Below, one piece after another: positions 6,160-50,338 of a stretch of DNA of 64,000 nt. The first letter of the stretch is position 1. The number at the start of each line of letters is the position of its first letter. A program made the position numbers and the translations under genes. The DNA comes from Chloroflexota bacterium (GTDB lineage: Bacteria; Chloroflexota; Dehalococcoidia; GIF9; UBA5629). Location of the stretch: contig VGNX01000001.1 of the NCBI GenBank assembly GCA_016865855.1, positions 1,060 to 65,059 of the forward strand, read 5' to 3'. The notes below the pieces were generated by a model. The model saw only the letters and a program-made list of their open reading frames with translations. It did no database searches and was not told the DNA's origin.

Positions 6160-6276
6160 CATGACCAGCGAGATTCAACGCCGCACCATTGCCGCTTAGC
6201 TTTAAGGCAAGCACACTAGCTCAGACCAGCCAATGCCAGGACGAGTGTCACTCATGCTTTATCTCCCCACGATTCA

Positions 6277-6705
6277 CTATTTCTTGCGCTCTTCTACTCG
6301 TAATTCCATAGCAATATGCCCCCAGCCCCCACATCGCACCCCCACATCGGAACAACCTACCCTCTTAAACCGCATCTCATTGGGGTCAACGCCGGCATAG
6401 AAGAGCTCACTCGATGCCTGAATTAACGCTCCCACTGGGCTCAGAGCGGCGATGCAGATTCTCTTGGGACAAAGCTTGGTTAAAAGGTTGCCCGACCCAT
6501 CGAAATAGAACTTATCGCCCACCTTATGCTGACTGTTGCATCCGTGTGATTCTACCACCTCCACAACCATTGTTCTATTCATTAATGCCGGTGCCTTGGA
6601 AATAACATCTTCATTCCTCGGATTTGCTCTGAATTTCTTCATTTCTGCATCGGTGTACCCTAAATGCTTTTGGTAGAAGTCCCACGTTTCTTGATTAACC
6701 TTCAT
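6277..6705 (-). CDS. uncharacterised Cys/His-rich protein, paralog 2
   Basis: 142-aa ORF collinear with 5255..5686. Its 3'-terminal 120 nt (6280..6399) differ from 5261..5380 at only 4 positions. Confidence 0.7.
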   Translation of the reverse strand: MKVNQETWDFYQKHLGYTDAEMKKFRANPRNEDVISKAPALMNRTMVVEVVESHGCNSQHKVGDKFYFDGSGNLLTKLCPKRICIAALSPVGALIQASSELFYAGVDPNEMRFKRVGCSDVGVRCGGWGHIAMELRVEERKK

Positions 6706-6764: not shown

Positions 6765-7664
6765 TTAGTCAGGGCTTGTCTCTGGCGACCTGAACAAAAC
6801 GGAGATTATGATTAACACTATCCCAGCACTAAGAAAACCAATTCCGTACATTCTCATGGGAGGCGTAAGGTCAGCAGCCAGCTGAGGTAACTTTGCCTGA
6901 AGTCCAAACAGCATGCTTGATTCACCAGCAAGACGGCTAAGAGCTTGACTAATCAATAAATCAAGCAGCGAACCTAAAATACAGGTCACGCCGGCTATAA
7001 TGAACACTATGCCGATAGCCCGCGTAATGGGCTTCGGTTGCCACCAGTGCACCAGCGCTATCAGCAATACCAAAAGAACTGCTAAGGCAATCAGAGCCTT
7101 ATACGTCGTGTCTACATAACCGATAGCTTGTTTGACCTGCTCAAGTTGAGCTATCATCTGCGAACCTACAACCGCCTCATTAAGCTCAAAGCTTGCCGGT
7201 ATCGCCTTATCGATTTCAACATACACCTGTGACATATAGGCATCTATCTGGCTTTGGGGAGCACCCTGCAATTCTGGAGGCAGCGACTCAAGTATAGCCT
7301 GCCTTACGTTTTGCTTGACGACAGACCTCACCGGCTCCAGCAGAACAGTCACATTCAGCTCTTGTTCACCTTTGAGGTAGGCATAAACAGCACGAATAAC
7401 AGTGCTAGCTTGCTCTCTGAGCCACGGCTTAAGCTCAGCCAACATGCTATCTACAACTTCAGGCTTGATAAACTCCTGAGCTGGCAGCTGCACTTTCGCC
7501 TGCTCAACTACCACCGAATAGACATCCAATTTATCCAGCTCGGAGACAACAAAGTCAGGATTAAGTATGGTCAGGTTTATGGTAATAGTGATACCCAAGA
7601 GAAAAAGTGCAGTGACCAGCAAAGAAGCAAAAATGCCTGAGAAAAAGCCCCTGACAACGCTCAT
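6765..7664 (-). CDS. integral membrane protein, unknown function
   Basis: 299-aa ORF with an N-terminal TM helix (FFSGIFASLLVTALFLLGITITI), a soluble middle region and about 3 C-terminal TM helices. Confidence 0.65.
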   Translation of the reverse strand: MSVVRGFFSGIFASLLVTALFLLGITITINLTILNPDFVVSELDKLDVYSVVVEQAKVQLPAQEFIKPEVVDSMLAELKPWLREQASTVIRAVYAYLKGEQELNVTVLLEPVRSVVKQNVRQAILESLPPELQGAPQSQIDAYMSQVYVEIDKAIPASFELNEAVVGSQMIAQLEQVKQAIGYVDTTYKALIALAVLLVLLIALVHWWQPKPITRAIGIVFIIAGVTCILGSLLDLLISQALSRLAGESSMLFGLQAKLPQLAADLTPPMRMYGIGFLSAGIVLIIISVLFRSPETSPD

Positions 7665-7732
7665 GTTGAACTATCGGCTAATTATCAACCATAGGCACTT
7701 TTGGAGTCAACTTAGCCAGAGGACTCACCAGA

Positions 7733-7761
7733 GAGATTCTTCGCTTCGCTCAGAATGACAG
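7733..7761. repeat. solitary unit of the GAGATTCTTCG...CAGAATGAC hairpin-repeat family
   Basis: gagattcttcgcttcgctcagaatgacag matches units at 16284..16322, 33888..33990, 50806..50862, 51065..51092 and 61050..61195. Confidence 0.7.
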
Positions 7762-7782
7762 GCTAGTAGCGTTAAATAAATG

Positions 7783-10359
7783 TTAATGCAAGCCTGCCTC
7801 TTTTGCCTTCCGCTTCAATTCGTACAGTTTGGTGATGGCTTCAAGCGGGGACATGGAGTCGATATCGAGCTGGCTGATTTCTTCAACAAGCGGCGACTTA
7901 TCGCCGAAGAGGGGAAGCTGTGGGACTGGCTCTTTTTTAGGTCGACTGGCTTTATGCTGCTTCTGCCGAGGCTGGTCGCTTTCCAATTTTGCCAGAATCT
8001 CCTGAGCCCGGTGCACCACCGATGCCGGCAGCCCCGCCAGTTGAGCCACGTGAATGCCGTAGCTTTTGTCAGCACCACCAGGTACAACTTTGCGCAGGAA
8101 AATAACCTTGCCTTCCTCTTCGGTCACCGCCACGTTGAAATTCTTAACCCGAGGCAAGAAGCTTGCCAGCTCCACGAGTTCATGATAATGGGTGGCGAAA
8201 AGGGTCTTTGCCCTGAGCCTGGGATGATTGTGGATAAACTCGGCTACCGCCCAGGCGATAGAAAGCCCGTCATAAGTGCTCGTACCCCGCCCGATTTCAT
8301 CGAGTATAATCAGCGACTTTGGACTGGCATTATTGAGTATGTTAGCAGCCTCTATCATCTCCACCATAAACGTTGACTGCCCGGCAGCCAAATCTTCCTG
8401 AGCTCCTATCCTGGTAAAAATGCGGTCGACGATGCCTATGGTCGCTATATCAACTGGAACAAAACTGCCAATCTGAGCCAGTAAGACAATCAGCGCCACC
8501 TGCTTCAGATAGGTGGACTTCCCCGACATATTAGGACCAGTAAGGATAATGAGCTGCGTGTCCTTGTTGCACAGGTAAGTATCGTTGGGCACAAAACCAT
8601 CACCGCTCAAGCTCCTCTCCACCACCGGATGTCGTCCCCCTTTGATGGTTATGGCTTCGTCGGCAGTCAGTTCCGGCCTGACATATCTATATCTGACTGC
8701 CGCCTCAGCCAGACTGGAAAAGACATCGATCTCGGCCAGAGCCTTGGCTGAAGATAATATTCGCTCGCCGACGCTGGCTATTTGCTGGCAGACCTGTCGG
8801 AAAATCGCCGTCTCAAGCTCGACTATCCTATCCTGGGCATTGAGAATTACCGACTCATACTCCTTGAGCTCCGGAGTAAAGAACCGCTCCGCCCCGGTGA
8901 GCGTCTGCTTTCGAATATAATTATCAGGCACAAGACCCAGATTAGACTTAGACACCTCGATGTAATAGCCGAAAACCTTGTTATAGCCTACCTTCAAAGA
9001 CTTAATGCCGGTGCGCTCTCGCTCCTGCCGCTCAAGATTCGCTAAGTAGTTTTTAGCCTCTGTTGCCGCTTGTCGGATGCCGTCCAGTTCTTGAGAAAAA
9101 CCAGCTCTTATGACTCCACCCCGCTCCAGACTGGCGCCAGGCTCATCGACAATTGCCTGTGTAATTAAGTCAATGACATCAGGACACGGCTTCAATTCAG
9201 CACTCAACAAGGCTGGAAAACCTTCAACTTCTTCTACTTCTGCCTTCACCTCAGACAGTTTCTCGAGGCTGAAGCGCAGCGCCACCAGGTCCCTGGGAGT
9301 AGCTATGCCGCCTCTTATGCGATTAACCAGCCGCTCCAGGTCGGCAATGCCTCCGAGGAGTGACATGACCTTGTGACGAACCAGCGTATTCTCGCAGAAC
9401 CAGGCTACAGCTTCTTGCCGACTAATCAATTGATTTATGTCAAGAAGCGGCTGCCCCAGCCACTTCTTGAGCAGCCTGCCACCCATCGCCGTCTTAGTTA
9501 AATCGATTACAGAAAGTAGAGACCCAGAGCTGGCTCCCCAGCGAGCGCTGGCAAAAAGCTCAAGGTTGTGCCTGGTATGGGCATCGAGAACCATGAAAGA
9601 TTGAGTTGAATAGGTAGCCAGATGGTCCAATTGACCCAGCGCCGTCTTTTGGTTCGCCTGCAGATAGTGGACGATTGAGCCAGCAGCCCTGATAGCCAGA
9701 GGTAAGTGGGCACAGCCATATCCCTCAAGAGAAGCCACTGCAAAATGGTCAATTAAAGTTTGATTTGCAGTTTCTAAATCAAACCAGTAATCATCGAGCC
9801 TTGTCACTGAGGTTGGCAACGTCAAACCGCCGGCATCCAAGCTCTCGGGGAGTAGAAGCTCAGCCGGGTGAAGACGCTCCAGTTCATCGGAAATTTGACT
9901 AGCCGGAAGTTGAGTAGTGGCAAACTCACCGGTGGTTATGTCCGCATAAGAGATGCCCGCATCATCGCCGTCAACAATCAGGCTGACCAGATAGTTATTA
10001 TTTTTATCGGAAAGAAGCCCCGGTTCAACCACCGTCCCCGGCGTTACCACGCGGATGACCTCACGCTCCACAAGCCCCTTACCTGGCGGGGTCATCTGCT
10101 CACAAATAGCCACCTTATAGCCTTTATTGATGAGCTTAGCCAAGTAGTTATCGAGGGCGTGGAAAGGAATCCCGGCCATGGGCACCCGCTGCCCCTTCCC
10201 CATCTCCCTGGAAGTTAAGGTGATTTCCAGCTCTCGGGCAGTAGTTTTAGCATCATCGTCGAAGGTCTCGTAGAAATCACCCAGTCGGAAAAAGACTATG
10301 GTCTCAGGGTAGCGCTGTTTGATTCTAAGATATTGCCGCCTGAGAGGAGTTATCGGCAT
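7783..10359 (-). CDS. mutS: DNA mismatch repair protein MutS
   Basis: 858 aa. The N-terminus is MPITPLRRQYLRIKQRYPETIVFFRLGDFYETF, with Walker A GPNMSGKST and DEIGRGTSTYDG. Confidence 0.95.
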   Translation of the reverse strand: MPITPLRRQYLRIKQRYPETIVFFRLGDFYETFDDDAKTTARELEITLTSREMGKGQRVPMAGIPFHALDNYLAKLINKGYKVAICEQMTPPGKGLVEREVIRVVTPGTVVEPGLLSDKNNNYLVSLIVDGDDAGISYADITTGEFATTQLPASQISDELERLHPAELLLPESLDAGGLTLPTSVTRLDDYWFDLETANQTLIDHFAVASLEGYGCAHLPLAIRAAGSIVHYLQANQKTALGQLDHLATYSTQSFMVLDAHTRHNLELFASARWGASSGSLLSVIDLTKTAMGGRLLKKWLGQPLLDINQLISRQEAVAWFCENTLVRHKVMSLLGGIADLERLVNRIRGGIATPRDLVALRFSLEKLSEVKAEVEEVEGFPALLSAELKPCPDVIDLITQAIVDEPGASLERGGVIRAGFSQELDGIRQAATEAKNYLANLERQERERTGIKSLKVGYNKVFGYYIEVSKSNLGLVPDNYIRKQTLTGAERFFTPELKEYESVILNAQDRIVELETAIFRQVCQQIASVGERILSSAKALAEIDVFSSLAEAAVRYRYVRPELTADEAITIKGGRHPVVERSLSGDGFVPNDTYLCNKDTQLIILTGPNMSGKSTYLKQVALIVLLAQIGSFVPVDIATIGIVDRIFTRIGAQEDLAAGQSTFMVEMIEAANILNNASPKSLIILDEIGRGTSTYDGLSIAWAVAEFIHNHPRLRAKTLFATHYHELVELASFLPRVKNFNVAVTEEEGKVIFLRKVVPGGADKSYGIHVAQLAGLPASVVHRAQEILAKLESDQPRQKQHKASRPKKEPVPQLPLFGDKSPLVEEISQLDIDSMSPLEAITKLYELKRKAKEAGLH

Positions 10360-10455
10360 GTCCCACCCACCCCTATTTTACTACTTCCCCCACCGACGGC
10401 AAAGGTATTGTACTCGTTCAGTACATCAGTGATATTTCGCTTATTTGCATTTAGC

Positions 10456-10512
10456 ATGTAGCTGCGGGGCTTTAGCCCCACCCAGTGCGACCCTAAAGGG
10501 TCGCAGCTACAT
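10456..10512. repeat. REP-like compound palindrome (ATGTAGC...GGCTTTAGCC...GACCCTAAAGGGTC...GCTACAT)
   Basis: atgtagctgcggggctttagccccacccagtgcgaccctaaagggtcgcagctacat. Related copies are listed in the findings. Confidence 0.8.
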
Positions 10513-10580
10513 TTTGGGATAAATAAACGCATAATTGTGGAGCTGTTTACAGGAACTGCTCATGGCATAGAAGTAGGCCG

Positions 10581-11150
10581 TCACAGTCTTGGCTTGCAGA
10601 TTATCTCTTTCACTCTGAGGGAGAAGGCATCATGAGCATGGGCTGGTTTAACAACGATGGCTGTATCGGCCCCTCTTGCCGTCCCAGCTATTGCTATGAC
10701 CTCCTCATCTGGGCTTATGAGACCAGCGTCGGCGGCCATAAGACTTATCTCAATGGCTACCTTCACGCCCTGGCCAAACATCCGAAGCGTATTGGCCATG
10801 AAATCCCCGAGGACATGGGTGTTAAAAGACTTTCTTACGGCATGGGCTATGCCACCAAAGGCATGGGCGCCTGTAAAAATCTCCGCCCCCAGCTTCTCTA
10901 TCCTTGCCTTGTTTTCAGAAGTAAGTTCCTGAGTGCCCGGAGCCTTGAAGCCAGCGGTGTGGGATACCACAACAACTTTATAGTCCTTGAACTCTTCGGC
11001 AGCCTTAACACCAGTGTCACCCGTCGTTGAAGCCACCACGATTCTCTTTATGCCAAGCTCCTCAGCCCTGGCTTTGGCTAGCTTAAATGTCTCCTCCGTG
11101 TTGTCAGGGCCGAGAGAATCGAAATAAACAACGCTGGCTTCTCTTGTCAT
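10581..11150 (-). CDS. pyruvate kinase alpha/beta (C-terminal) domain-like protein
   Basis: About 189 aa from ATG 11150 (AAGGAG 6 nt upstream): MTREASVVYFDSLGPDNTEETFKLAKARAEELGIKRIVVASTTGDTG. This resembles stand-alone PK_C-domain proteins. The assignment is by recollection only. Confidence 0.55.
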   Translation of the reverse strand: MTREASVVYFDSLGPDNTEETFKLAKARAEELGIKRIVVASTTGDTGVKAAEEFKDYKVVVVSHTAGFKAPGTQELTSENKARIEKLGAEIFTGAHAFGGIAHAVRKSFNTHVLGDFMANTLRMFGQGVKVAIEISLMAADAGLISPDEEVIAIAGTARGADTAIVVKPAHAHDAFSLRVKEIICKPRL

Positions 11151-11200
11151 GGTGGCTCCTTTCAAGTCACAGAACTAGCTGATATTTAGGGCAAGTTCCG

Positions 11201-12046
11201 CTATTCAACCTTGAAAGACGCACTAGCCTTTTCCTCGCCATCAACAGACAGAACCACTTTATAATCCCCTTTCGGCCATTTATAGTCAGGGTTATCTGGA
11301 GGACGCTTCAATGCTATAGAAGTGTAACCATCACCCCCAATAGTTCCAGTGTTCGACTGTAATACGTTGCTTTCGCCAACTTCACCTACCGCCTCGCCCC
11401 CCACATATACCCACTCCGCCTTTATCCTGGTACCAGGTGGAAAATGGGATAACTTAAGCGAGCAGTAAAACGCCTCAGCGTCGGCAGTAAAAACACTGGT
11501 GGAGCGAAGCGGTCGATCATTGCTGTCGACGGCTGTTGCCATTGTAACATCAGTTACAGTGCCATCAGACGAGCTAGCTTCCTTCTCTTTAACCGTGAAA
11601 GGTATGCTTGCATCTTCTTTGCCATTAACATACAAAACTACTTTGCAATCTCCCTTCGGCCACTTGTAGCCGGGCAAAGGAGGACGGAGATAGGATACGA
11701 AAGCGTAGCGCGTCCCTTCAACAGTGATAGTTAGCTCATCCATAACGTAGTTCTTCCCAATCTGCGCTTCTACTTCCCCACTTACGTAAGTCCACTCCCC
11801 TTTTATTTCCGTCTCGGGCGGAGCATCAATGACTTTGAAGGAGCAGTAAAACGCATCGGCGTCGGGAGCAAAGACAGTAGTGGGGTGGAGCGGCCGACCA
11901 TTATCATCCACGGCTGCTGTCATTGTTATCTCTGTTAAAAGGCCACTGGTGGAGATTACTCCCTTTTTTCCACAACCCGTCAGTAAAACAGCCATTAAAA
12001 TCAGAGCTATAAAAATTTGAACTACCAACCAGTATCTTTTATTCAT
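11201..12046 (-). CDS. lipoprotein with two tandem homologous domains
   Basis: ATG 12046 has GGAGGG 5 nt upstream. The signal peptide plus lipobox reads MNKRYWLVVQIFIALILMAVLLTGC. Two roughly 115-aa repeats both end in YKWPKGD(C/Y)KVVL..(N/D)G(K/E)E. Confidence 0.7.
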   Translation of the reverse strand: MNKRYWLVVQIFIALILMAVLLTGCGKKGVISTSGLLTEITMTAAVDDNGRPLHPTTVFAPDADAFYCSFKVIDAPPETEIKGEWTYVSGEVEAQIGKNYVMDELTITVEGTRYAFVSYLRPPLPGYKWPKGDCKVVLYVNGKEDASIPFTVKEKEASSSDGTVTDVTMATAVDSNDRPLRSTSVFTADAEAFYCSLKLSHFPPGTRIKAEWVYVGGEAVGEVGESNVLQSNTGTIGGDGYTSIALKRPPDNPDYKWPKGDYKVVLSVDGEEKASASFKVE

Positions 12047-12200
12047 ATATACCCTCCGCAATGTGTTTTTTAGCGCCGACAAGAAATCGTAAAACTTGTG
12101 GCCACTTTTGTCAAACTGTGATTTATTCACTTTTTTAAAAAGGTAAGATTAAACCCCCCAAAAAATATTGACAAACTGAAAAAAGTATGTTAGCGTATTA

Positions 12201-12232
12201 ATGAAATGTATTTCATTTATGATGTTTCATAA
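12201..12232. promoter_or_regulatory. two adjacent perfect palindromes upstream of kamA
   Basis: ATGAAAT-GT-ATTTCAT lies at 12201..12216 and TTATGA-TGTT-TCATAA at 12217..12232, in an AT-rich leader 44 nt before the kamA ATG. Confidence 0.3.
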
Positions 12233-12275
12233 TTTACTCAGCATTCTATTATAATAAATTGAGGAGAATCAATAG

Positions 12276-13646
12276 ATGACGAAATCAGCGGCATTAAAGA
12301 ACCAAGTCGAGGAAGAAGAACCTCCTGGCATCACCACCACAAGAAATGAAGTGGTGGCTGAGGAAGAAGAACCTCCAGGTAAGATGGCCGTTACCGATGG
12401 TACGGCCGTTATCAATAGAAAAAGGTTCTTTTCCCATATTCCAGAGGAAAATTGGAACGACTGGAAATGGCAATTCCGTAACCGCATTACCACCGTTGAA
12501 GAACTAGTAACTTTTATCCCTCTTTCAGCCAAAGAAAAAGCTCAGCTCAAATTAGTAACCGCAAAATATCCTCTTTCAGTAAGTCCATATTATCTCTCCC
12601 TAATCAACATATACGATCCTGACGACCCTATCAGGAAACAAGCAATACCTTCTTTCGAAGAGGTAACCCTCGGCAACATAGGTTTTGAAGACCCACTTGG
12701 AGAAAAAAGAGACTCCGTGGTCCCAGGTCTGGTCCACCGTTACCCAGACAGGATATTGATGGTGCTCACGGACATCTGTCCCATGCTTTGTCGCCACTGT
12801 ACACGGAAAAGAGAATGGCACAATGGCGGCTGGGTACGCACCCCGGGCGAAATCAAGACAATGCTAGACTACATCCGCAGGCACAAGACCATCAGAGACG
12901 TCATTCTCTCCGGCGGTGACCCCTTAACTCTTTCCACACGCCGCTTAGAAGATGTCATTTCCAAATTGAGACAAATAGACCATATTGAGATAATCCGCAT
13001 CGGCACCAGATTCCCCGTGGTGCTGCCGCAGCGCATAGATGACGAGTTGTGCAGCATGCTGTCAAAGTATGGGCCGATATGGCTTAACACTCAGTTCAAC
13101 CACCCTCGTGAGCTAACGCCTGAATCAGCGGCAGCCTGTGATCGTCTCCTGCGGGCTGGAGTCCCGATAAGCAATCAATCTGTGCTCCTTCGTGGTATAA
13201 ACGATAATGTGGAAACACAGACAAAACTCTGTAATGGACTCCTTAAGATAAAGGTGCGCCCCTACTATCTTTTCCAGTGCGACGAGGTTCAGGGAACGGA
13301 ACACCTACGCACCCCTGTAGAAACCGGAATCAAAATAATAGAGGGCATGCGTGGCCATACCTCAGGCCTGGCCATCCCTACCTTCGTTATAGACCTACCC
13401 GAGGGCGGTGGCAAAGTTCCTCTCCAGCCGAACTATGTGTTGACGCAAACAAAGGAAGACCTGGTATTAAGGAATTATCAGGGACGCTTCGTCTGGTACC
13501 GAAACCCTAAAGACAAAACCGGTTCCGAGCCAGCCGGCGAAGCAGCATTGGCCAACAACCCGCCTACTGAAATGCCTGACGAAACAGAGCGTCAGCTCCA
13601 ACCGGTGAGAGTCAGAAATGAAAATAGGGCTCGCATACGACCTTAA
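12276..13646 (+). CDS. kamA: lysine 2,3-aminomutase family radical SAM enzyme (KamA/AblA-like)
   Basis: Contains CPMLCRHCTRK (CxxxCxxC), WNDWKWQFRNRI, GGDPL and a PEGGGK tail. QCDEVQG and VIDLPEGGGK retain the two Asp positions that, as I recall, bind the lysine epsilon-ammonium in Clostridium LAM. GAGGAG lies 8 nt before ATG 12276. The N-terminus has two EEEEPPG motifs. Confidence 0.85.
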   Translation: MTKSAALKNQVEEEEPPGITTTRNEVVAEEEEPPGKMAVTDGTAVINRKRFFSHIPEENWNDWKWQFRNRITTVEELVTFIPLSAKEKAQLKLVTAKYPLSVSPYYLSLINIYDPDDPIRKQAIPSFEEVTLGNIGFEDPLGEKRDSVVPGLVHRYPDRILMVLTDICPMLCRHCTRKREWHNGGWVRTPGEIKTMLDYIRRHKTIRDVILSGGDPLTLSTRRLEDVISKLRQIDHIEIIRIGTRFPVVLPQRIDDELCSMLSKYGPIWLNTQFNHPRELTPESAAACDRLLRAGVPISNQSVLLRGINDNVETQTKLCNGLLKIKVRPYYLFQCDEVQGTEHLRTPVETGIKIIEGMRGHTSGLAIPTFVIDLPEGGGKVPLQPNYVLTQTKEDLVLRNYQGRFVWYRNPKDKTGSEPAGEAALANNPPTEMPDETERQLQPVRVRNENRARIRP

Positions 13647-14625
13647 AGAGGCGGTCGGCGCTGCACCAGGCTGCCCCGAGGATGCCCTCGAGGAGTATGA
13701 CTCACCTGAAACAGTGGAGGCTATTGCCACTGCATTAGAGCCCTTGGGGCACTCAGTGGTCAAGCTGGGCGGCGGCAGAGAGTTCATAACTAACATTCTC
13801 CAGAATAACATCGATTTTGTCTTCAACATCTCCGAAGGGCTGGGCAATCATCGAAGCCGAGAGGCTCAGGTACCCGCCATCCTGGAAATGCTCGATATAC
13901 CTTATTCAGGTTCAGACCCACAGTGCCTGGCAATATGTCTGGATAAACCCTTAACTAAGAGGTTGGTGGCAACTGCAGGAATTCGCACCCCAAGATGGCA
14001 GTTGGTTACGGATTACAGCCAGTTAAAAGAAATACCCCTCGACGGGTTCCCGCTGCCCGCTTTTGTCAAGCCGGCCTACGAAGGTTCAAGCAAGGGCATT
14101 CGCCTTGGTTCCCGGACTGAGACTGCGGCACAAATAGCCGAAGTAGCAGCAGAACTTCTTGAGCACTACAGGCAGCCGGTGATGGTAGAGGAATTCATCG
14201 CCGGTGATGAGGTGCCGGTGGGCATGGTCGGTAATTCCCCAGCGAAGGTTCTAGGCATAATGCGTGTTCTAGCCAAGAAAAGTAGTGCCTATTTTATCTA
14301 TTCGCTTGAAGTAAAACGGGAATGGGAGCAGCTGGTAGACTACGAATGTCCCGCCCAGTTGGAGACAGGCATCCTGGAGGAAATTGCGAATTCAAGCCTC
14401 AGGGTTTTCAAGGTTTTGGGCTGCCGTGACTTTGCCAGGCTTGACTTCAAACTCAGCTCCGAAGGGGTGCCCTACTTCCTGGAGATAAATCCGCTGGCAG
14501 GGCTCAACCCGAAGAGCGGTGACCTGCCCATTATGGCTAACAAACTGGGCTGGAGCTATCAGACTCTCATCTCAGCTATACTCAATGCCGCTTTGCAAAG
14601 GTACCCGCAGTGTGTCCGAGGATAG
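13618..14625 (+). CDS. D-alanine--D-alanine ligase family ATP-grasp enzyme (paralog 1)
   Basis: 335 aa: MKIGLAYDLKE..., FVKPAYEGSSKGI, ARLDFKLSSEGVPYFLEINPLAGLNP. Its start overlaps the kamA 3' end by 29 nt. Confidence 0.8.
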   Translation: MKIGLAYDLKEAVGAAPGCPEDALEEYDSPETVEAIATALEPLGHSVVKLGGGREFITNILQNNIDFVFNISEGLGNHRSREAQVPAILEMLDIPYSGSDPQCLAICLDKPLTKRLVATAGIRTPRWQLVTDYSQLKEIPLDGFPLPAFVKPAYEGSSKGIRLGSRTETAAQIAEVAAELLEHYRQPVMVEEFIAGDEVPVGMVGNSPAKVLGIMRVLAKKSSAYFIYSLEVKREWEQLVDYECPAQLETGILEEIANSSLRVFKVLGCRDFARLDFKLSSEGVPYFLEINPLAGLNPKSGDLPIMANKLGWSYQTLISAILNAALQRYPQCVRG

Positions 14626-15608
14626 CGATTATCTATAATGAACCCACCCCTGACCTTTATGGGAGCATTGTAGAAAAGAAGGCATCGCTCGCTATTCTCG
14701 ACGGAGTGGAGGCAGTCCACCAAGCCCTGACTGAGTCTGGATACCCTGTTGCTCGCCTACCCCTGCTACCACCACTCGAGTCAGCCAGAGAAAGCCTAAA
14801 AGGCTTAGAAGCAGATTTGGTGTTCAATCTATTCGAAGGCTTTGATGGCAACCCAGAAACTGAGGCTTATGTGGCTGAGTTTCTTTCTGAGCTGGGATTA
14901 ACCTGCACCGGTTGCCCTGGAACTGCCTTGTCCCTGGGATTAGACAAAATAAAAACAAAGGCACACCTAGCAGCAATAGGGATAGACACACCCAGGTACC
15001 AGCTGTTAGGCCCCAAGGCCATATCTTTGTTTCACCTGGACTATCCCTGCATCGTGAAACCGTACGCCGAGGACGGAAGCAACGGCATATCAGAAGAAAG
15101 CGTGGTGCACGACTTCGCCTCACTGGGAAAACAGGTAACAACGCTAAGTAAGTGTTTTGGGAGAAGGGCACTGGTGGAGGAGTTCGTTGATGGCCGTGAA
15201 TTCAATGTTACAGTCCTAGGAACCAGGGAACCCAAGGCCTTACCCATCTCCGAAATAGTATATTCACTGCCGCCTGAGATGCCCAGGATTCTCACCTTCT
15301 CCGCCAAATGGGACTCCCAAAGCATCTATTTCGAGCATACCAAAGCTGTCTGCCCGGCCGAAATAGACATTGAGCTACGAGAGCGCATCATTCAGACTGC
15401 TCTCCTCGCTTTCAGGCTGCTGGGCTCTCGCGGTTACGCCAGGATAGATTTTCGACTGGATACCAAAGAGCAGCTGAAAGTCATAGAGCTAAACCCCAAT
15501 CCTGATATATCCCCTGACGCCGGTGCAGCGCTTCAAGCTCAGGCTGCCGGGATGACCTATAACCGGTTTATTGAACAGATTGTGCAGCTTGCTCTTGAGA
15601 GAAGATGA
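14610..15608 (+). CDS. D-alanine--D-alanine ligase family ATP-grasp enzyme (paralog 2)
   Basis: 332 aa: IVKPYAEDGSNGI, ARIDFRLDTKEQLKVIELNPNPDISP. It overlaps the upstream gene by 16 nt. Confidence 0.8.
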   Translation: MCPRIAIIYNEPTPDLYGSIVEKKASLAILDGVEAVHQALTESGYPVARLPLLPPLESARESLKGLEADLVFNLFEGFDGNPETEAYVAEFLSELGLTCTGCPGTALSLGLDKIKTKAHLAAIGIDTPRYQLLGPKAISLFHLDYPCIVKPYAEDGSNGISEESVVHDFASLGKQVTTLSKCFGRRALVEEFVDGREFNVTVLGTREPKALPISEIVYSLPPEMPRILTFSAKWDSQSIYFEHTKAVCPAEIDIELRERIIQTALLAFRLLGSRGYARIDFRLDTKEQLKVIELNPNPDISPDAGAALQAQAAGMTYNRFIEQIVQLALERR

Positions 15609-16090
15609 GAATGAGACCAAAAGTCAGGCCGATGACCGACGAAGACAAACCAGCCATAATTCAAATGTTACGGAATATTCCGGAATTCAAGCCGGTCGAG
15701 GTAGATATAGCCGAGGAGGTTCTTGATAGCTACCTGTGCGACTCGATTCGGTCGGGCTACCATGTCTTCGTGGCAGAAGTCGGCTCATCAATTGCTGGAT
15801 ATATTTGCTATGGGCCCACCCCACTGACTGAAGGTACCTGGGACATATACTGGTTGGCAGTAGCGCCAACTCAACAAAGCCAAGGCATAGGAAAAGCCCT
15901 GCTGACTTTCGCCGAGGGTAACATTAAAGAAACGCAGGGCAGGCTGGCTCTCATTGAGACATCTTCCAAGCCAGAATATGAGGCAACAAGACGCTTTCAC
16001 CGAGCACAAGGCTACGAACTGGCTTGCCGCATTGCCGACTTCTATGCGCCCGGCGATGATAAACTTGTCTTCCAGAAACGGCTGAGTTAA
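15605..16090 (+). CDS. GNAT family N-acetyltransferase
   Basis: 161 aa with acetyl-CoA motif A (WLAVAPTQQSQGIGKALL). It shares an ATGA start/stop overlap with the preceding ATP-grasp gene. Confidence 0.8.
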   Translation: MRMRPKVRPMTDEDKPAIIQMLRNIPEFKPVEVDIAEEVLDSYLCDSIRSGYHVFVAEVGSSIAGYICYGPTPLTEGTWDIYWLAVAPTQQSQGIGKALLTFAEGNIKETQGRLALIETSSKPEYEATRRFHRAQGYELACRIADFYAPGDDKLVFQKRLS

Positions 16091-16136
16091 GCTATACTTC
16101 AGAACAGGTCAACAAGAGATTTTCCCGATTACCGCC

Positions 16137-16322
16137 TGTCATTGCGAGATACAGAGTGCCGGGCAATCTCGGTTTTCCCTTTCTGTCGTTGCGAAGAGCG
16201 TGAGTGATGTGGCAATCTCCCTTATACCATTCTGTCATTGCGAGGCATGAAATGCCGTGACAATCTCGGCGGGGGGATGACATGAGATTCTTCTCCTTCA
16301 CTTCGTTCAGTGTCAGAATGAC
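16137..16322. repeat. cluster of short hairpin-repeat units (3x GTCATTGCGAG...CAATCTC type, 1x GAGATTCTTC...CAGAATGAC type)
   Basis: Units lie at 16137..16172, 16183..16220, 16232..16269 and 16284..16322. Track ORF 16092..16301 is just their translation. Confidence 0.8.
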
Positions 16323-18908: not shown

Positions 18909-21275
18909 TTATACCTGCAGGCGAGTGCGGGCGATGATCTCTCGTTTGGCAGCGTCGGGGAGGTCATCGAAATAGGCGCAATAGCCGGAAACGCGCACTA
19001 CCAAATCTGGATACTTGCCGGGATTGCGGCGGGCATCCTCCAGCACGTCGGGATCGAGCACGTTCAACTGCATCTCCAGCCCACCTGAACCGAAGAAGCC
19101 TTTCACCAGACCAGCCAGGATGTTCACCCCTCGGTCACCGGCCAGAGTATTAGGGTCGAAGCGGAGATTCAGAGCATAACCGTTTGGCGACAGGGTAGAG
19201 TCTACATGCGCCACCGAGTTCAGCAAAGCGGTGGGGCCAAGGCGGTCACACCCGTTGGTCGCCCCCAGGCTAGCCGCAAACGGTCCCCTTGCCTTCCTTC
19301 CGCTGGGCAAAGCACCAACACGCTTCCCGAAAGCCACATGGCAGGTCACGGAATAAAACCCAGGCACATAAGGACCGCCACGCGTATTGCGATGTTGAGC
19401 TAAGGCCGAGTGGAAAATATTTACTACCAGATTGGCATAGCCATCGGGCAGATGATGGTCATTCCCGTACTTGGGAGCTTTGAGCAGCTCAGCTCGTAGT
19501 TCAGGAGCGGTGGCAAAATTGTCACGCAGCGCTTCCAGTACTTGGGCCATGGTGTACCTACCCCGCTGAAAAACCACATCATCCAGCGCAGCCAGTGAAT
19601 CGGCCACGTCCGCTACTCCTACCCCCTGAATGCCGCTGGAGTTATACAGGGCTCCGCCGGCAGTTACATCCTTCCCCGACTCCAAACAGCCATCCACCAG
19701 CATCGAAGAAAGCGGGGTGGGATGATACTCACGATTCCCCTTCTCAATCACCTGCAGGTCATAAATCATGCGCGCCACCATGTACTCCACCTGCATACGG
19801 AAGGTCTCGACCACCTGGTCAATGCTGGTGAACGAAGTTGCCTCAGGGGTGACAGCACCAATTTGGTGGCCACCTTTGAGCCGCCTGCCACAATTAAGCG
19901 CCAGCTCGAGACAGAAAGGAAGATTGAAGAGCGCCGCATCTGTGGAAAAGAAGCTCTTTCCCGGCAGGGCTAGCTCCACACAGCCCACTACGGCATAATC
20001 GCGTGCTTCTTCCAGTGGATAGCCATGTGAGACAAACGCGGCTACCGCAGCCTCGTCATTGAACAGCGCCGGTACCCCATTGCCTTTCCTGGCCACATCT
20101 GCCACCCGCCTAAGATAATCTTCTGGAGAACCGGCGTGAATGCGCGCCTGATAGTTTGGATCACGCAGACCGGATTCCTCCATTACATCAAGAAGGAGGT
20201 AGGTAAGCTCATTGACGGCATCCTTTCCCTCTCTGTCCATGCCCCCGACTATCGCTGCCTGCACCACAAGATAGCCGCCATGATACTGGCTGACCCCCTC
20301 GGAAAGCAGGAAGACATGCTCAGTGGCCTTGGCCGAGAAGCAAAGCATAAGCTCACGGGCTTGCTCCGAGGTGATTCTACCTTCCTCAAGGTCGCGCTTG
20401 TAGCAAGGATAAAGATACTGGTCCATCCGCCCAAAGGAGATAGCCGAGTTAAGCCCCTCCAGACACACTGCCATGTGCGTCAGCCACAGCAACTGCAGAG
20501 CTTCATGAAAGGTCTCAGCCGGGCTATATGGAACCTTGTGACATATTCTTGCTATTTCCTTAAGCTCAGCGGCACGCGCCACATCCCTTTCTTCACTGAC
20601 TAGATGCTCAGCCTCCTGTGCCAGGCGCCTGGCAAAATCAACCAGCCCCTCACAGGCAATGTGCGCGGCATTGTAGAGGTCACCTTCTTTTCCTTTTATA
20701 ACCTCCAGGTAACCCTTCACCCCCAGCTTGAGCATCTTTTCGTAGTCAGGCAGAAAATGTCCAATGCCGCCGGCCTCGTTGATCAGGTAACAGGTGGCCT
20801 TAAGCTGCTCCAACACATAGCGCAGCAGCTCTCGCCACCGTGGGGAAAAAGCTTGAACCGGCATATTACGGAAGAGCCAACAGGGGAATACGCCGAAGAG
20901 CAGCTTCAGACGATCACGCCAGGAGATGCGTAAAGGTGTCGTCTTCCTTTTATCTATCCACAGCAAGTCCGTAGCCATGAATACACCGCTCAACTCAGGC
21001 TGAATGAGGGCTGAGATGCGCCGGCTGCCCATATTGCCAACGATAAGCTCATCAGGATAGATGTGCACCGATTTATGCCTCAAAAGATGACGCAATGTCT
21101 TAGCCTTGCGAATCACCATCGGTTCGGTTGGGTCATCGTGATGCTTAAAGTAGTCGGTGATAAGATATGCCCGCTCCGGGCACAAGTAAACCGGGGTAGA
21201 GAGGAGTTCCTGCTTTATGCGCTTGAAGCGCCTAGATTTTTCTTTCCCCTCCAGGCTTTTAACGTCAACTTTCAT
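18909..21275 (-). CDS. glycyl radical enzyme (PFL2/glycerol dehydratase-like family)
   Basis: About 788 aa. The C-terminal glycyl-radical motif is LVVRVSGYCAYF and the thiyl loop is VVGCVELALPG. ATG 21275 has GGGGGAG upstream; the track start at 21329 adds 18 aa. Confidence 0.85.
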   Translation of the reverse strand: MKVDVKSLEGKEKSRRFKRIKQELLSTPVYLCPERAYLITDYFKHHDDPTEPMVIRKAKTLRHLLRHKSVHIYPDELIVGNMGSRRISALIQPELSGVFMATDLLWIDKRKTTPLRISWRDRLKLLFGVFPCWLFRNMPVQAFSPRWRELLRYVLEQLKATCYLINEAGGIGHFLPDYEKMLKLGVKGYLEVIKGKEGDLYNAAHIACEGLVDFARRLAQEAEHLVSEERDVARAAELKEIARICHKVPYSPAETFHEALQLLWLTHMAVCLEGLNSAISFGRMDQYLYPCYKRDLEEGRITSEQARELMLCFSAKATEHVFLLSEGVSQYHGGYLVVQAAIVGGMDREGKDAVNELTYLLLDVMEESGLRDPNYQARIHAGSPEDYLRRVADVARKGNGVPALFNDEAAVAAFVSHGYPLEEARDYAVVGCVELALPGKSFFSTDAALFNLPFCLELALNCGRRLKGGHQIGAVTPEATSFTSIDQVVETFRMQVEYMVARMIYDLQVIEKGNREYHPTPLSSMLVDGCLESGKDVTAGGALYNSSGIQGVGVADVADSLAALDDVVFQRGRYTMAQVLEALRDNFATAPELRAELLKAPKYGNDHHLPDGYANLVVNIFHSALAQHRNTRGGPYVPGFYSVTCHVAFGKRVGALPSGRKARGPFAASLGATNGCDRLGPTALLNSVAHVDSTLSPNGYALNLRFDPNTLAGDRGVNILAGLVKGFFGSGGLEMQLNVLDPDVLEDARRNPGKYPDLVVRVSGYCAYFDDLPDAAKREIIARTRLQV

Positions 21276-21340
21276 GGACACTCCCCCCTTATTCCCTGCA
21301 GAATAGGTCATTGCCCGCCGGAATGTCAAGAATTTGAAAT

Positions 21341-21532
21341 GTCATTGCGAGGGGCCTAAGCCCCAAAGCAATACCTGCGCTTTCCCGTCATTGCGAGGAG
21401 CGCAAGCGACGTGGCAATCTCGGTGGAGAGCACGGGGCATTGAGATTGCTTCGCTGCGCTCGCAATGACACGAAGACAAGCCACGACCCTTTAGGGTCAT
21501 GCTGGCCGAGGCTAAAGCCTCACCACTACATG
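21341..21532. repeat. hairpin-repeat units plus a degenerate REP-like palindrome
   Basis: Three units: gtcattgcgaggggcctaagccccaaagcaat; gtcattgcgaggagcgcaagcgacgtggcaatctcgg paired with gagattgcttcgctgcgctcgcaatgac; then ccacgaccctttagggtc...gaggctaaagcctc...ctacatg. Confidence 0.75.
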
Positions 21533-26965: not shown

Positions 26966-27333
26966 GCGTGGCAATCCCTATCATGATTTCCCTTAGATTG
27001 CCACGTCGCTAACGCTCCTCGCAATGACATAACAAAAGAAGCCCCTAACAATGACCAAAAGCTCCCTCTCCTGTCATTGCAAGCCCTTTGCCCTTTGTCA
27101 TTCTGAGGGAGCGGAGCGGCCGAAGAATCTCATCCCTTGCCTTGAGATCCTTCGCTTCGCTCAGGAGGGACAAGGTCTGTCCGCCTCGAACAGGTCGTGC
27201 CGTAATTTTCTGACTCCAAAGGGCTAAAACCCCACAACTACGTGTTTGTAATCTGACACAGGTTGTGCTCCAACTAATGTAGCCACGACCCTTTAGGGTC
27301 GTGCCCACGAGGCTAAAGCCTCGTGGCTACATG
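26966..27333. repeat. composite repeat block (both hairpin-repeat families plus a full REP-like palindrome 27277..27333)
   Basis: Contains agattgccacgtcgctaacgctcctcgcaatgac, tgtcattctgagggagcggagcggccgaagaatctc and atgtagccacgaccctttagggtcgtgcccacgaggctaaagcctcgtggctacatg. Track ORF 27045..27308 is spurious. Confidence 0.8.
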
Positions 27334-29741: not shown

Positions 29742-30863
29742 ATGCCGACAAAGATCGACAATGTTGACAAAAACCTGCTGAACATCATCCAGGCAGAGTT
29801 CCCCCTGAGCCGAGAGCCGTTCACTGCCTTGGGACTACACCTAAGCGTTAACTGTAATGAGGTAATCCAGAGAATAGAGAGGTTAAAATCAGGAGGAATC
29901 ATACGCCTGATAGGTCCCGTTTTTAATCCAAGAAGGCTCGGCTACCGGACTACCTTGGTAGCGGTGAAAGTACCCGTGGAACGGCTGGATGAGGCGGAAC
30001 AAATCGTCAGCACACATCCGATGGTGAGCCATTGCTACGAACGCGACCATGACTTCAACCTTTGGTTCACATTGGCCATGCCTGTAGCCGAGGACATAGA
30101 GAGCGAGGTACACAAGCTAGGCAGCAGAACCAAGGCCGAGGAAATATTAAACCTACCCGCAGTGAGAGTTTTCAAAATAGGAGCTTTCTTTAACCTCAGC
30201 AGAAGTAATTCCCACCTGTCATTGCGAGCTCTTCACTCCACTGTCATTGCGAGCGAAGCGTGGCAATCTCAATCCCTCCCCCCACCAGAATTGCCACGGC
30301 ATTTCGTGCCTCGCAATGACAATAAACATTTTCATCTAAAAGTGCCGGAACCTGAAATCGAATACCATAGCCCGCTCAACACGTGCTCCGACCTGTCTAT
30401 CGTTGACCGGGCTGTCATCAATGAATTACAGCAAGACCTACCCCTCAGTGAAAAACCGTTTGACCTAATATCAGCAAGACTTTCTATGAACGTGGACAAA
30501 TTTCTCAGCCACTGCCAGGCTCTTTTGCAGCGCGGAATTATGCGACGCTTCAGTGCCTCTATCAACCACAACAAACTTGGATTTACGGCCAATGCTATGG
30601 CTTGCTGGAACATGCCACCTGATATAATAGAGGCAGCAGGCAATAAGATAGCCAAGTTTCCGGAGATAAGCCACTGCTATGAAAGGCAGACAAGCCCCCT
30701 CTGGCCTTATAACCTATTTGCCATGATACATACCGCCACCAAAGAGACCTGCCGAGCCATAGCTAACCGGATACACTCAGAGACCGGGCTTGGTAAAAAT
30801 GACTTGGTGTTGCTTTTCAGCACCAAAGAGATAAAAAAGACGAGGGTTCGATATACGGTATGA
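29742..30863 (+). CDS. fused two-module AsnC/Lrp-like siroheme decarboxylase (AhbA/AhbB, NirDL-like)
   Basis: Two homologous modules: DKNLLNIIQAEFPLSREPF...HCYERDHDFNLWFTL and DRAVINELQQDLPLSEKPF...HCYERQTSPLWPYNLFAMI. They are joined by a linker encoded by hairpin repeats at 30217..30320. Confidence 0.7.
   Translation: MPTKIDNVDKNLLNIIQAEFPLSREPFTALGLHLSVNCNEVIQRIERLKSGGIIRLIGPVFNPRRLGYRTTLVAVKVPVERLDEAEQIVSTHPMVSHCYERDHDFNLWFTLAMPVAEDIESEVHKLGSRTKAEEILNLPAVRVFKIGAFFNLSRSNSHLSLRALHSTVIASEAWQSQSLPPPELPRHFVPRNDNKHFHLKVPEPEIEYHSPLNTCSDLSIVDRAVINELQQDLPLSEKPFDLISARLSMNVDKFLSHCQALLQRGIMRRFSASINHNKLGFTANAMACWNMPPDIIEAAGNKIAKFPEISHCYERQTSPLWPYNLFAMIHTATKETCRAIANRIHSETGLGKNDLVLLFSTKEIKKTRVRYTV
30217..30320. 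repeat. hairpin-repeat units located inside the coding sequence
   Basis: tgtcattgcgagctcttcactccactgtcattgcgagcgaagcgtggcaatctc...attgccacggcatttcgtgcctcgcaatgac. It is translated in-frame as LSLRALHSTVIASEAWQSQSLPPPELPRHFVPRND. Confidence 0.85.
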
Positions 30864-33719: not shown

Positions 33720-33740
33720 GCCGCCCACCTAAACCAATTT

Positions 33741-34134
33741 GTCATTGCGAGGCACGGGGTGCCGTGGCAATCTAGGTGGCGGGAGGGTGAGGTGAGATTG
33801 CTTCGCTTCGCTCGCAATGACGAGAAGGGAAAAAGCCCTAAACAAATTCAAAATCACAAATTCCAATGAACAAAACATACAAAAAGCTGTCATTCTGAGG
33901 GAGCGAAGCGACCGAAGAATCTCGTAGCCAAGAATCTGAGTGAAACTTTGAGATCCTTCCCCTTCACTTCGTTCAGGGTCAGGATGACAGGGGAAAAGGC
34001 TCGGAAGTTCAATTGCCAAAGACCAAAACTTCGGGTGTTTCGAATTTGGAGAATTTGAATTTTGATATTATTTGGGGTTTAGTATTTCGAATTTCCCATT
34101 GTAGGGGGCGAGGCTAAAGCCTCGCAGCTACATG
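33741..34134. repeat. composite repeat block (hairpin pair 33741..33821, hairpin pair 33888..33990, AT-rich low complexity, half REP 34101..34134)
   Basis: gtcattgcgaggcacggggtgccgtggcaatct...agattgcttcgcttcgctcgcaatgac; tgtcattctgagggagcgaagcgaccgaagaatctc...ttcgttcagggtcaggatgacag; gtagggggcgaggctaaagcctcgcagctacatg. Track ORFs 33449..33817 and 33729..34019 are spurious. Confidence 0.8.
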
Positions 34135-36326: not shown

Positions 36327-36399
36327 GTCATTGTCATTGCGAGCGAAGCGTGGCAATCTCTGAGATTGCTTCGGGGGCTTGCGCCCCCTCGTAATGACA
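36327..36399. repeat. inverted pair of GTCATTGCGAG...CAATCTC units
   Basis: gtcattgtcattgcgagcgaagcgtggcaatctc tgagattgcttcgggggcttgcgccccctcgtaatgacag. Confidence 0.8.
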
Positions 36400-49072: not shown

Positions 49073-50338
49073 TTGAAAGTAATGGTTATTGGTAGTGGGG
49101 CTCGGGAGCACGCACTTGCCTGGAAAATCGCCCAAAGCCCCAATGTCACCGAACTCTATGTAGCCCCAGGCAACGTTGGCACAGCGGCCATCGCCCGCAA
49201 CTTGAACATCCGCCCCAATGATATAGAGGCTTTAGCCAAAGCTGCCCAAGACATCGGTATTGACCTCACTGTTGTTGGCCCAGAAGCACCCCTAGCTTCA
49301 GGCATTGTAGACCACTTCGAGCATCTCGGGATACCTATTTTCGGGCCAACAAAAGCCGCTACCCGGATAGAATCAAGCAAAGTCTTTGCCAAAAAACTAA
49401 TGCAAAAATATGCTATCCCCTGCCCCAAAGGTGTCACTTTCTCCAATTACGCCGAAGGTAAGAAATATCTTGAGTCTCAGCCAGTACCGATCGTGGTTAA
49501 GGCTGATGGGCTGGCAGCCGGGAAGGGAGTAATAGTAGCTGGTTCGAGAGGAGAAGCTTTAAAAGCTCTGTCAGATATCTTGGAAGCTAAGATTTTTGGT
49601 TCGGCTGGTGACAGTGTAGTGATCGAGGAATGCCTCACCGGCAGAGAGGTAAGCCTCCTGGCTTTCACCGATGGCAAAACGGTCGTTCCTATGGTTCCAG
49701 CTTGCGATTACAAGAGGATATTTGATAATGACCAGGGCCCTAACACCGGTGGCATGGGCAGCTATAGCCCACCTGGATTTTTCGACGCTAAACTGACTCA
49801 GCGGGTAATGGAGACAATCCTAAAACCGGCGGTAAGAGCAATGGCCAACGAAGGAATACCTTACAAAGGGGTGCTTTATGCCGGACTGATGATAGCGTCT
49901 GATAGGCCAAAAGTGTTAGAATTTAACGCCAGATTCGGTGACCCGGAGACTCAGGCGATTTTACCTCGTCTGCAGACTGATTTAGTAGACATTCTTCTCG
50001 CCGTAATAGATAATAGGCTCGGTGAAGCAACCATAAAATGGACTGATGATGCCTGCGTTGGGGTGGTAATGGCATCAGCCGGATATCCGGGAAACTACAA
50101 GACAGGCTTCCCCATAACGGGGCTGAACAACTTGGACAAGGATATCCTGGTCTTTCATGCCGGGACTAAGCTTGGCGATAATTCACAGGTATATACTGAT
50201 GGAGGACGAGTGCTCACAGTAACAACTACTGGCAAAAACATGGCTGAAGCCAGAGCTAAAGTCTACCAAAATCTGCCTCATATCCACTTCGATGGCTGCC
50301 ATTACCGCAAGGACATTGCAGCCAGGGAGGTCAACTAA
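49073..50338 (+). CDS. purD: phosphoribosylamine--glycine ligase
   Basis: MKVMVIGSGAREHALAWKIAQSP..., ATP-grasp core, 421 aa. TTG start as given by the track; ATG 49082 is the alternative. Confidence 0.9.
   Translation: MKVMVIGSGAREHALAWKIAQSPNVTELYVAPGNVGTAAIARNLNIRPNDIEALAKAAQDIGIDLTVVGPEAPLASGIVDHFEHLGIPIFGPTKAATRIESSKVFAKKLMQKYAIPCPKGVTFSNYAEGKKYLESQPVPIVVKADGLAAGKGVIVAGSRGEALKALSDILEAKIFGSAGDSVVIEECLTGREVSLLAFTDGKTVVPMVPACDYKRIFDNDQGPNTGGMGSYSPPGFFDAKLTQRVMETILKPAVRAMANEGIPYKGVLYAGLMIASDRPKVLEFNARFGDPETQAILPRLQTDLVDILLAVIDNRLGEATIKWTDDACVGVVMASAGYPGNYKTGFPITGLNNLDKDILVFHAGTKLGDNSQVYTDGGRVLTVTTTGKNMAEARAKVYQNLPHIHFDGCHYRKDIAAREVN

Follow-up and report, generated by a model that had tools for sequence, protein, structure and literature searches.

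In pyrrolysine biosynthesis, the radical S-adenosylmethionine (SAM) enzyme PylB acts as a lysine mutase, and PylC, an ATP-grasp enzyme resembling the D-Ala-D-Ala ligase Ddl, joins the mutated amino acid to the epsilon-amine of lysine. The solute N-acetylglutaminylglutamine amide (NAGGN) is made by Ngg and AsnO, where Ngg is a single bifunctional protein that acts on glutamine and works with an amidotransferase partner. The AblA/AblB pathway to N-epsilon-acetyl-beta-lysine has been reviewed, and NAGGN described as a solute, in the same paper (PMC1224877). Here, we analyzed a 64,000-nucleotide stretch of a Chloroflexota genome of the class Dehalococcoidia (GenBank assembly GCA_016865855.1, contig VGNX01000001.1, positions 1,060 to 65,059), hereafter the window, which carries a cassette of four genes, kamA-ligA-ligB-gnat, encoding a KamA-family aminomutase, two Ddl-fold ATP-grasp ligases (LigA and LigB), and a small GNAT N-acetyltransferase.

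We propose, with a probability of roughly 55%, that this cassette functions as an operon for the biosynthesis of a small, cytoplasmic, N-acetylated pseudopeptide derived from beta-lysine. Beta-lysine has a handful of known fates, and the cassette points to another. The enzyme families and their chemistry are familiar, and the combination is undescribed despite its wide distribution and the existence of an orphan crystal structure for one component; a full-text search of the open-access literature found no paper on the cassette and no characterized pathway that matches it.

Results

The first gene product contains Radical_SAM and LAM_C domains (Pfam), and the only KamA-type model that it passed was the generic TIGR00238, with 337.6 bits against a cut-off of 199.2. 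Its best specific model was TIGR03820, the AblA/KamA lysine 2,3-aminomutase, matched over model positions 4-366 of 417 with 484.4 bits, below the cut-off of 525.4, and the cassette KamAs of Desulfovibrio and Woeseia likewise remained below it at 447-473 bits. The only solved structure that it matched was the lysine 2,3-aminomutase of Clostridium subterminale, 2A5H (E 3.7e-135). An identity as EpmB was ruled out by the score (TIGR03821, 241.7 bits against 369.3) and by the lack of efp or EpmA nearby, and identities as glutamate or arginine 2,3-aminomutase were ruled out by the scores (TIGR04368, 449 bits against 650; TIGR04468, 419 bits against 600) and by the retained Asp pair described below.

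Alignment of 72 cassette KamAs from Dehalococcoidia, Desulfovibrio, and Woeseia, in 2A5H numbering, revealed that C125, C129, and C132 of the 4Fe-4S motif CxxxCxxC, Arg134, Asp293, Asp330, and Lys337, which carries the pyridoxal phosphate, are invariant in all 72. The QCD and VID..GGGK motifs align with Asp293, Asp330, and Lys337. We take Asp293 and Asp330 of 2A5H to bind the epsilon-amine of lysine and Arg134 to bind its carboxylate, and glutamate 2,3-aminomutase presumably has Lys/Asn where the cassette KamA retains the Asp pair. An active site of the lysine type is well supported, and with it the predicted conversion of L-lysine to beta-lysine. At position 268, every aligned cassette KamA has N, D, S, or T instead of Cys, and 52 of 69 had C-terminal tails free of cysteine; because the zinc site of 2A5H presumably consists of Cys268 and a C-terminal Cys triad, the cassette KamAs would form a distinct lysine-type subclade with a short C-terminus and no zinc site.

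Within kamA, a 21-bp direct repeat, GAGGAAGAAGAACCTCC(T/A)GG, lies at 12309-12329 and 12360-12380 and encodes EEEEPPG twice (residues 12-18 and 29-35) in an acidic N-terminal extension of the protein. This extension is common to the closest relatives, and distant orthologues start about 20-25 residues later. A minus-strand open reading frame (ORF) at 12269-12532 is the shadow of the kamA N-terminal region.

LigA and LigB are 31% identical to each other, and both contain the C-terminal Ddl domain PF07478 (Dala_Dala_lig_C; 114.9 bits for LigA and 97.5 for LigB, threshold 24), while neither has a Pfam match to the Dala_Dala_lig_N domain. No Ddl model was passed: LigA scored 170.5 and 147.3 bits and LigB 139.8 and 108.6 bits on NF002378 and TIGR01205, whose cut-offs are 243 and 245.65. 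The closest solved relatives of both are Ddl and VanA structures (E 1e-27 to 1e-15).

To compare residues, E. coli DdlB (identical in sequence to 2DLN) was aligned with 68 ligA and 65 ligB orthologues and with representatives of other phyla. The equivalents of K97, K144, E180, E187, R255, D257, E270, and N272, which serve ATP, Mg, and catalysis, are invariant in both ligase families, also across phyla. LigA and LigB should both be catalytically active, since the residues for ATP, Mg, and the acyl-phosphate are invariant. The positions that we take to bind D-Ala in DdlB (E15, H63, S150, Y216, and S281/L282) are altered: nothing conserved stands at E15, and both families have Glu without exception in place of H63. 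LigA has L or Y at the Y216 position and, in all phyla compared, an invariant Asp for L282. LigB always has Trp for Y216, and there S281/L282 give way to Ala/Gly and S150 to A or G. Judged by their sequences, LigA and LigB are not D-Ala-D-Ala ligases, and with their new acidic residues the pockets would be better matched to a positively charged substrate, for example a diamino acid, than to D-alanine. All public annotations of cassette ligases that we saw read "D-alanine--D-alanine ligase," a label that is very probably wrong.

The fourth protein passed both GNAT domain models (PF13508, 45.7 bits against 27; PF00583, 44.2 bits against 20.7). Among the NCBIfam models it came closest to RimI, with a weak 30 bits where the cut-off is 86, and it had no match to the AblB model TIGR03827 at E<=1e-3, which rules out an identity as AblB. 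Its closest solved relative is 2R7H (E 1.6e-35), a structural-genomics entry of unknown function deposited as "putative D-alanine N-acetyltransferase of GNAT family," which we take to come from Desulfovibrio G20. The fourth gene of the equivalent cassette on a Desulfovibrio-like contig encodes a protein 99% identical to 2R7H, and by sequence comparison the fourth gene of our cassette is its orthologue. The name given to 2R7H appears to derive from the "Ddl" annotations of its neighbors.

A first-pass annotation of the window had read the four genes as a KamA-family radical SAM aminomutase, two paralogous Ddl-like ATP-grasp ligases, and a GNAT, and had recognized in the QCD and VID..GGGK motifs the two Asp residues that hold the lysine amine. 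All of these assignments were confirmed by the domain matches and alignments. It had also considered that the ligases might be genuine Ddl or murein genes that are merely adjacent, and this was refuted by the model cut-offs (170 and 140 bits against 243), by the substrate residues, and by the invariant linkage of the cassette described below. Its overall interpretation, amide-bond formation on beta-lysine followed by N-acetylation, is supported by the analysis: of the refuting conditions that it had listed, none that sequence data can address came true.

A scan of one genome per GTDB species with patterns derived from a ligA alignment matched at least 599 stretches, and at least 581 of them were confirmed as relatives. 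We inspected the best 80 of these, all from Dehalococcoidia/Chloroflexota metagenome-assembled genomes (MAGs) except for one bin labeled Deltaproteobacteria. A tblastn search with the four window proteins recovered kamA-ligA-ligB-gnat, with order and orientation unchanged, from 73 of the 80 loci; in each of the remaining 7, the absent gene falls at a contig end, 0-281 nt away, leaving no counter-example and a linkage kept in 73 of 73 testable loci. The order is preserved down to 58% ligA identity, and the flanking genes (mutS and others) are common only to the roughly eight closest relatives. Such an arrangement is far beyond chance. Habitats of the MAGs that carry the cassette include marine, groundwater, peat, and freshwater or lake environments.

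Outside Chloroflexota, loci were sought with the 2R7H sequence as query, followed by a look-up of the contigs. Desulfovibrio mangrovi carries a sigma-54 activator, KamA, two Ddl-like genes, GNAT, and a fusion of GNAT with a histone-deacetylase-family (HDAC) domain, and a contig resembling Desulfovibrio G20 carries the cassette in equivalent order with the 2R7H-like protein in fourth place. A Desulfovibrio orthologue of the cassette lies at about 3558300-3562260 of CP104208.1. A Woeseia MAG has KamA, ligA, a fragmented ligB, HDAC, and GNAT; a further genome of 3.7 Mb has KamA, ligA, ligB, a GNAT-HDAC fusion, GNAT, and a divergent major facilitator superfamily (MFS) gene; and a Myxococcota MAG has kamA, a ligA-ligB fusion, and GNAT. 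One Spirochaetales contig begins with a ligB-like gene followed by GNAT, and a Planctomycetota relative of the GNAT stands alone. The cassette is thus present in at least four bacterial lineages beyond Dehalococcoidia, in Spirochaetales only in part. The ligB of the Woeseia MAG (L082, 5384-6178) is split over several frames, as a pseudogene or an assembly error, and the rest of that cassette and its HDAC gene are intact.

LigA orthologues from Desulfovibrio and Woeseia are 38-40% identical to ours, and LigB orthologues from other phyla 31-36%. Across phyla, LigA invariably has its nearest counterpart in the first ligase of a cassette, and LigB in the second, a pairing which indicates that the ligase duplication is older than the spread of the cassette and that each paralogue has its own role.

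Fusions between cassette proteins were found by searching 1.84 billion cluster representatives with ligA, which returned 869 clusters at E<=1e-30, of which the best 150 were classified. Among these, 16 were ligA-ligB fusions in cassette order, 24 joined a ligA-like domain in tandem to a different ATP-grasp domain, and 3 were KamA-ligA fusions, each a singleton metagenome protein. The Myxococcota ligA-ligB fusion, of 789 aa, sits between kamA and GNAT, and we consider that fusion real for this reason.

Variant loci were also seen. In L087, a KamA-ligA fusion of 739 aa (7001-9220) lies about 600 nt downstream of a gene for a LysW-like zinc-ribbon protein of 66 aa whose C-terminal tail is acidic (6164-6364) and is followed by an S66 (LD-carboxypeptidase-type) peptidase (9199-10119) and by a very divergent ATP-grasp-like protein of 374 aa (10129-11253); this locus has no GNAT. 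In L089 (3181-6368) and L090 (8001-11432), tandem double ATP-grasp proteins of 682-724 aa, whose C-terminal half is 37-44% identical to LigA, precede a gene for an S58 (DmpA/BapA-type) aminopeptidase, without KamA or GNAT, and apparently represent a separate and undescribed ligase-peptidase pair. These are the two loci looked up for the 24 tandem fusions, which we assign to a system other than the cassette.

Recurrent neighbors were defined by clustering all ORFs of the 80 inspected loci. A divergent winged-helix regulator of about 100 aa lies upstream of kamA in 28 loci. A protein of about 580 aa, which begins with a GNAT-like region and also has a domain of the histone deacetylase family, occurs in 17, mostly just downstream of GNAT, and a deacetylase partner is also found in 3 of 5 loci outside Chloroflexota. 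The deacetylase domain is most similar to acetylpolyamine amidohydrolases (APAH; E 1e-66 to 1e-63), with protein deacetylases following at a clear distance; such a partner speaks for a small molecule that is acetylated on an aliphatic amine. Examples of this fusion as a fifth gene come from several phyla (L081, 8629-10386; L088, 6268-8004; L014, 4558-6300), and no NCBIfam model covers it. A MarC membrane protein lies beside the cassette in 13 of the 80 loci and an MFS transporter in 7, which argues that the compound crosses a membrane in some lineages. Neither the APAH-like deacetylase nor the winged-helix regulator, MarC, or MFS gave a tblastn match within the window.

The layout of the locus is summarized in Table 1. 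Successive cassette ORFs overlap by 29, 16, and 4 nt, the last as ATGA. The 145-nt leader has 24% GC, compared with 51% in the cassette, and contains a sigma-70-like match, TTCATA-18-TATAAT (12226-12255), and the Shine-Dalgarno sequence GAGGAG (12262-12267), 8 nt 5′ of the kamA ATG. From these features, the cassette is predicted to be transcribed as one self-contained operon.

Table 1 Features of the cassette and its flanks (positions in the window)
Feature	Positions	Strand	Description
AT-rich leader	12131-12275	+	Promoter-like site and Shine-Dalgarno sequence
Palindrome ATGAAATGTATTTCAT	12201-12216	not assigned	Perfect palindrome; candidate operator
kamA	12276-13646	+	456 aa, ATG start
ligA	13618-14625	+	335 aa, ATG start; predicted Ddl-fold ATP-grasp ligase, not a D-Ala-D-Ala ligase by sequence
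ligB	14610-15608	+	332 aa, GTG start; predicted second, paralogous Ddl-fold ATP-grasp ligase
Small GNAT N-acetyltransferase	15605-16090	+	161 aa, ATG start; predicted orthologue of PDB 2R7H
Right boundary	16136-16257	not assigned	Dispersed intergenic repeat with core TGTCATTGCGAG, present in three copies; outside the pathway

The palindrome ATGAAATGTATTTCAT lies 60 nt upstream of the kamA start and is unique in the window, where 0.07 occurrences are expected. Six of the most closely related loci (L001, L002, L003, L004, L006, and L007) each have it once as well, in a matching position 47-80 nt before kamA. It is a candidate operator.

The first-pass annotation had described four overlapping plus-strand genes, behaving as one operon, between a promoter-like AT-rich leader and a repeat/MITE (miniature inverted-repeat transposable element) block. 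Its overlaps agree exactly with the ORF coordinates, the leader has the properties given above, and both the overlaps and the gene order kept in 73 of 80 related loci speak for a single operon. The right-hand block is correctly called a repeat block because its core TGTCATTGCGAG, present there in three copies, is dispersed through the window, with 29 matches at up to 2 mismatches against 4.9 expected; nothing supports the MITE part of the label. Direct-repeat families D1 and D2 lie within the right flank, as does a terminator-like hairpin at 16158-16173. The sites with TGTCATTGCGAG repeats (16137-16244, 21340-21470, 27018-27107, 30217-30321, 33740-33899, 36332-36399, and 61135-61193) are intergenic, in both orientations, and often hold groups of 2-3; the repeats may be REP-like, MITE, or other elements.

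An Rfam search of the leader and right flank found no credible riboswitch or known RNA, the sole match being a snoRNA at E 0.32. An anti-phage defense system was ruled out, as the PADLOC models matched none of the four cassette proteins. Elsewhere in the window, a glycyl-radical enzyme resembling pyruvate formate-lyase is encoded at 18909-21329 (-), 2.8 kb downstream of the cassette, and in the Desulfovibrio G20-like locus (L085) a glycyl-radical enzyme (189-2615, -) adjoins the sigma-54 activator of the cassette, which may be a coincidence. The window ORF at 49073-50338 (+), of 421 aa, has a weak tblastn match (E 4e-4) to Desulfovibrio ligB at 49286-49702 and may encode a further ATP-grasp protein.

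Discussion

We propose that KamA turns L-lysine into beta-lysine (3,6-diaminohexanoate), the step that is well supported. LigA and LigB would then act non-redundantly, each forming one amide bond through an acyl-phosphate, and at least one of these bonds would involve beta-lysine as acyl donor, amine acceptor, or both. The GNAT would N-acetylate either beta-lysine or the conjugate at a free amine, and the product would be an N-acetylated di- or tri-pseudopeptide of beta-lysine. Where an APAH-like deacetylase is encoded as a fifth gene, it could strip the acetyl group, and where MarC or MFS proteins are present, they could move the compound. Synthesis may be controlled by a dedicated regulator, acting through the palindromic operator here and represented elsewhere by the divergent winged-helix protein or the sigma-54 activator. 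As to the role of the compound, our preferred guess is that it serves anaerobes as a solute for stress protection or charge balance, or as a metabolite resembling polyamines.

A bolder version, to which we give somewhat less than even odds, is that the cassette makes a new class of metabolite which is central to the physiology of Dehalococcoidia, of sulfate reducers, and of further bacteria living in sediments, with the APAH-like enzyme providing a reversible acetyl switch. If so, the metabolite could be, for example, a new compatible solute, a polyamine substitute, or a low-molecular-weight cofactor.

Several points weigh against the pseudopeptide pathway. The position of GNAT as the last gene does not fix the order of the reactions, and the pocket argument combines an alignment to DdlB, in which the omega-loop region of LigA aligns poorly, with the residue roles that we assume for DdlB. 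The three KamA-ligA fusions could be frameshift artefacts, and the LysW-like carrier of L087 hints at chemistry tethered to a protein. The deacetylase and the transporters are missing from the window and from most loci. Finally, the range of habitats extends beyond marine sites; it does not imply an osmolyte role and does not point to salinity in particular.

One alternative is that the cassette makes a natural product for export, with bioactive or chelating properties, for instance a polycationic beta-lysine oligomer like the side chain of streptothricin, in which case acetylation by the GNAT would be self-protection and the deacetylase would reactivate the compound. Acetylation of the beta-lysine amine confers streptothricin resistance, so this logic is known, and the recurrence of MarC and MFS membrane proteins beside the cassette and the acidic ligase pockets fit it as well. 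However, transporters are found in a minority of loci, and the class-wide vertical conservation of a stable core in at least 581 species is the usual pattern of housekeeping or physiological metabolism and not that of a sporadic secondary-metabolite cluster, which makes an exported product unlikely.

We regard as quite unlikely that the cassette modifies a macromolecule, with the ligases attaching beta-lysine to a protein, or a residue onto beta-lysine, and the GNAT capping the adduct. Possible targets would be a translation factor (the case of EpmA/EpmB), the C-terminus of a protein (the case of RimK), or a LysW-type carrier. ATP-grasp enzymes such as RimK and LysX do modify proteins, and L087 pairs a LysW-like zinc-ribbon protein with the KamA-ligA fusion. 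Nevertheless, that gene was seen in one variant only, membership of KamA in EpmB fails, tblastn found the gene for elongation factor P (EF-P) in none of 90 loci nor in the window, and the recurrent neighbors include no EpmA or carrier protein; the partners that do recur are a deacetylase of the small-molecule type, APAH-like, and transporters.

It is more improbable still that the aminomutase acts on another basic amino acid (ornithine, arginine, or a lysine derivative), so that the pathway would not be based on beta-lysine. The missed AblA equivalog cut-off (484 bits, below 525) and the distinct subclade without a zinc site could be read in this way, but the shortfall coincides with the absent C-terminal segment of the model, the match to 2A5H is strong (E 4e-135) with the Asp pair and Arg134 invariant, and the arginine and glutamate models score lower and much further below their cut-offs. 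That the locus is an AblA/AblB-type N-epsilon-acetyl-beta-lysine osmolyte pathway with ordinary cell-wall Ddl genes lying in between, as the public ligase annotations and the closeness of KamA to the AblA model might suggest, is hardly credible, because neither ligase comes near any Ddl cut-off or keeps the D-Ala contacts E15, S150, and Y216, their ORFs overlap the flanking genes, they are never missing from the cassette, other lineages have them joined in one protein or fused with KamA, and the GNAT has no AblB match.

The proposed beta-lysine pseudopeptide pathway is directly testable, since the cassette is present in cultured Desulfovibrio species and one of its components, 2R7H, has already been crystallized. 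A functional result would assign roles to four widespread gene families at once. The very probable mislabeling of the ligases also matters for Dehalococcoidia in particular, where the content of cell-wall genes is debated.

Comparison with known systems

The ligases share with Ddl and VanA (E. coli DdlB, 2DLN; VanA, 1E4E) the ATP-grasp fold and the residues for ATP, Mg, and the acyl-phosphate, and differ from them in falling below the family cut-offs, in the replaced D-Ala residues, and in their context, which is a putative beta-lysine operon and not mur/ftsQ. EpmA/EpmB resemble the cassette in that a KamA-family aminomutase makes beta-lysine and an ATP-dependent ligation follows; however, the EpmA ligase is a paralogue of lysyl-tRNA synthetase and not an ATP-grasp enzyme, the cassette KamA is below the EpmB cut-off, and no efp gene lies near the cassette in any of the 90 loci.

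The combination of GNAT and ATP-grasp activities that yields an N-acetylated dipeptide solute is shared with NAGGN, whereas no amidotransferase was found among the cassette neighbors and the building block here would be beta-lysine. Pyrrolysine synthesis offers the same succession of a radical SAM enzyme that rearranges lysine and an ATP-grasp ligase that forms an amide. PylB, however, is not of the KamA family, and the cassette has a second ligase and a GNAT and no PylD, PylS, or tRNA; no PylC chain was among the PDB matches of LigA at E<=0.01, so a kinship of LigA with PylC was not seen at that level, and no dehydrogenase partner of the PylD type was among the recurrent neighbors of the 80 loci.

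The closest parallel is AblA/AblB, as both are operons that combine a lysine 2,3-aminomutase of the KamA type with a GNAT, and the cassette KamA scores best on the AblA model. The cassette differs in its GNAT, which is 161 aa long and does not match AblB, in its KamA, which is below the AblA cut-off and lacks the cysteines of the zinc site, and above all in the two ATP-grasp ligases that it adds and that are always present. By analogy, the cassette would work like an extended AblA/AblB pathway.

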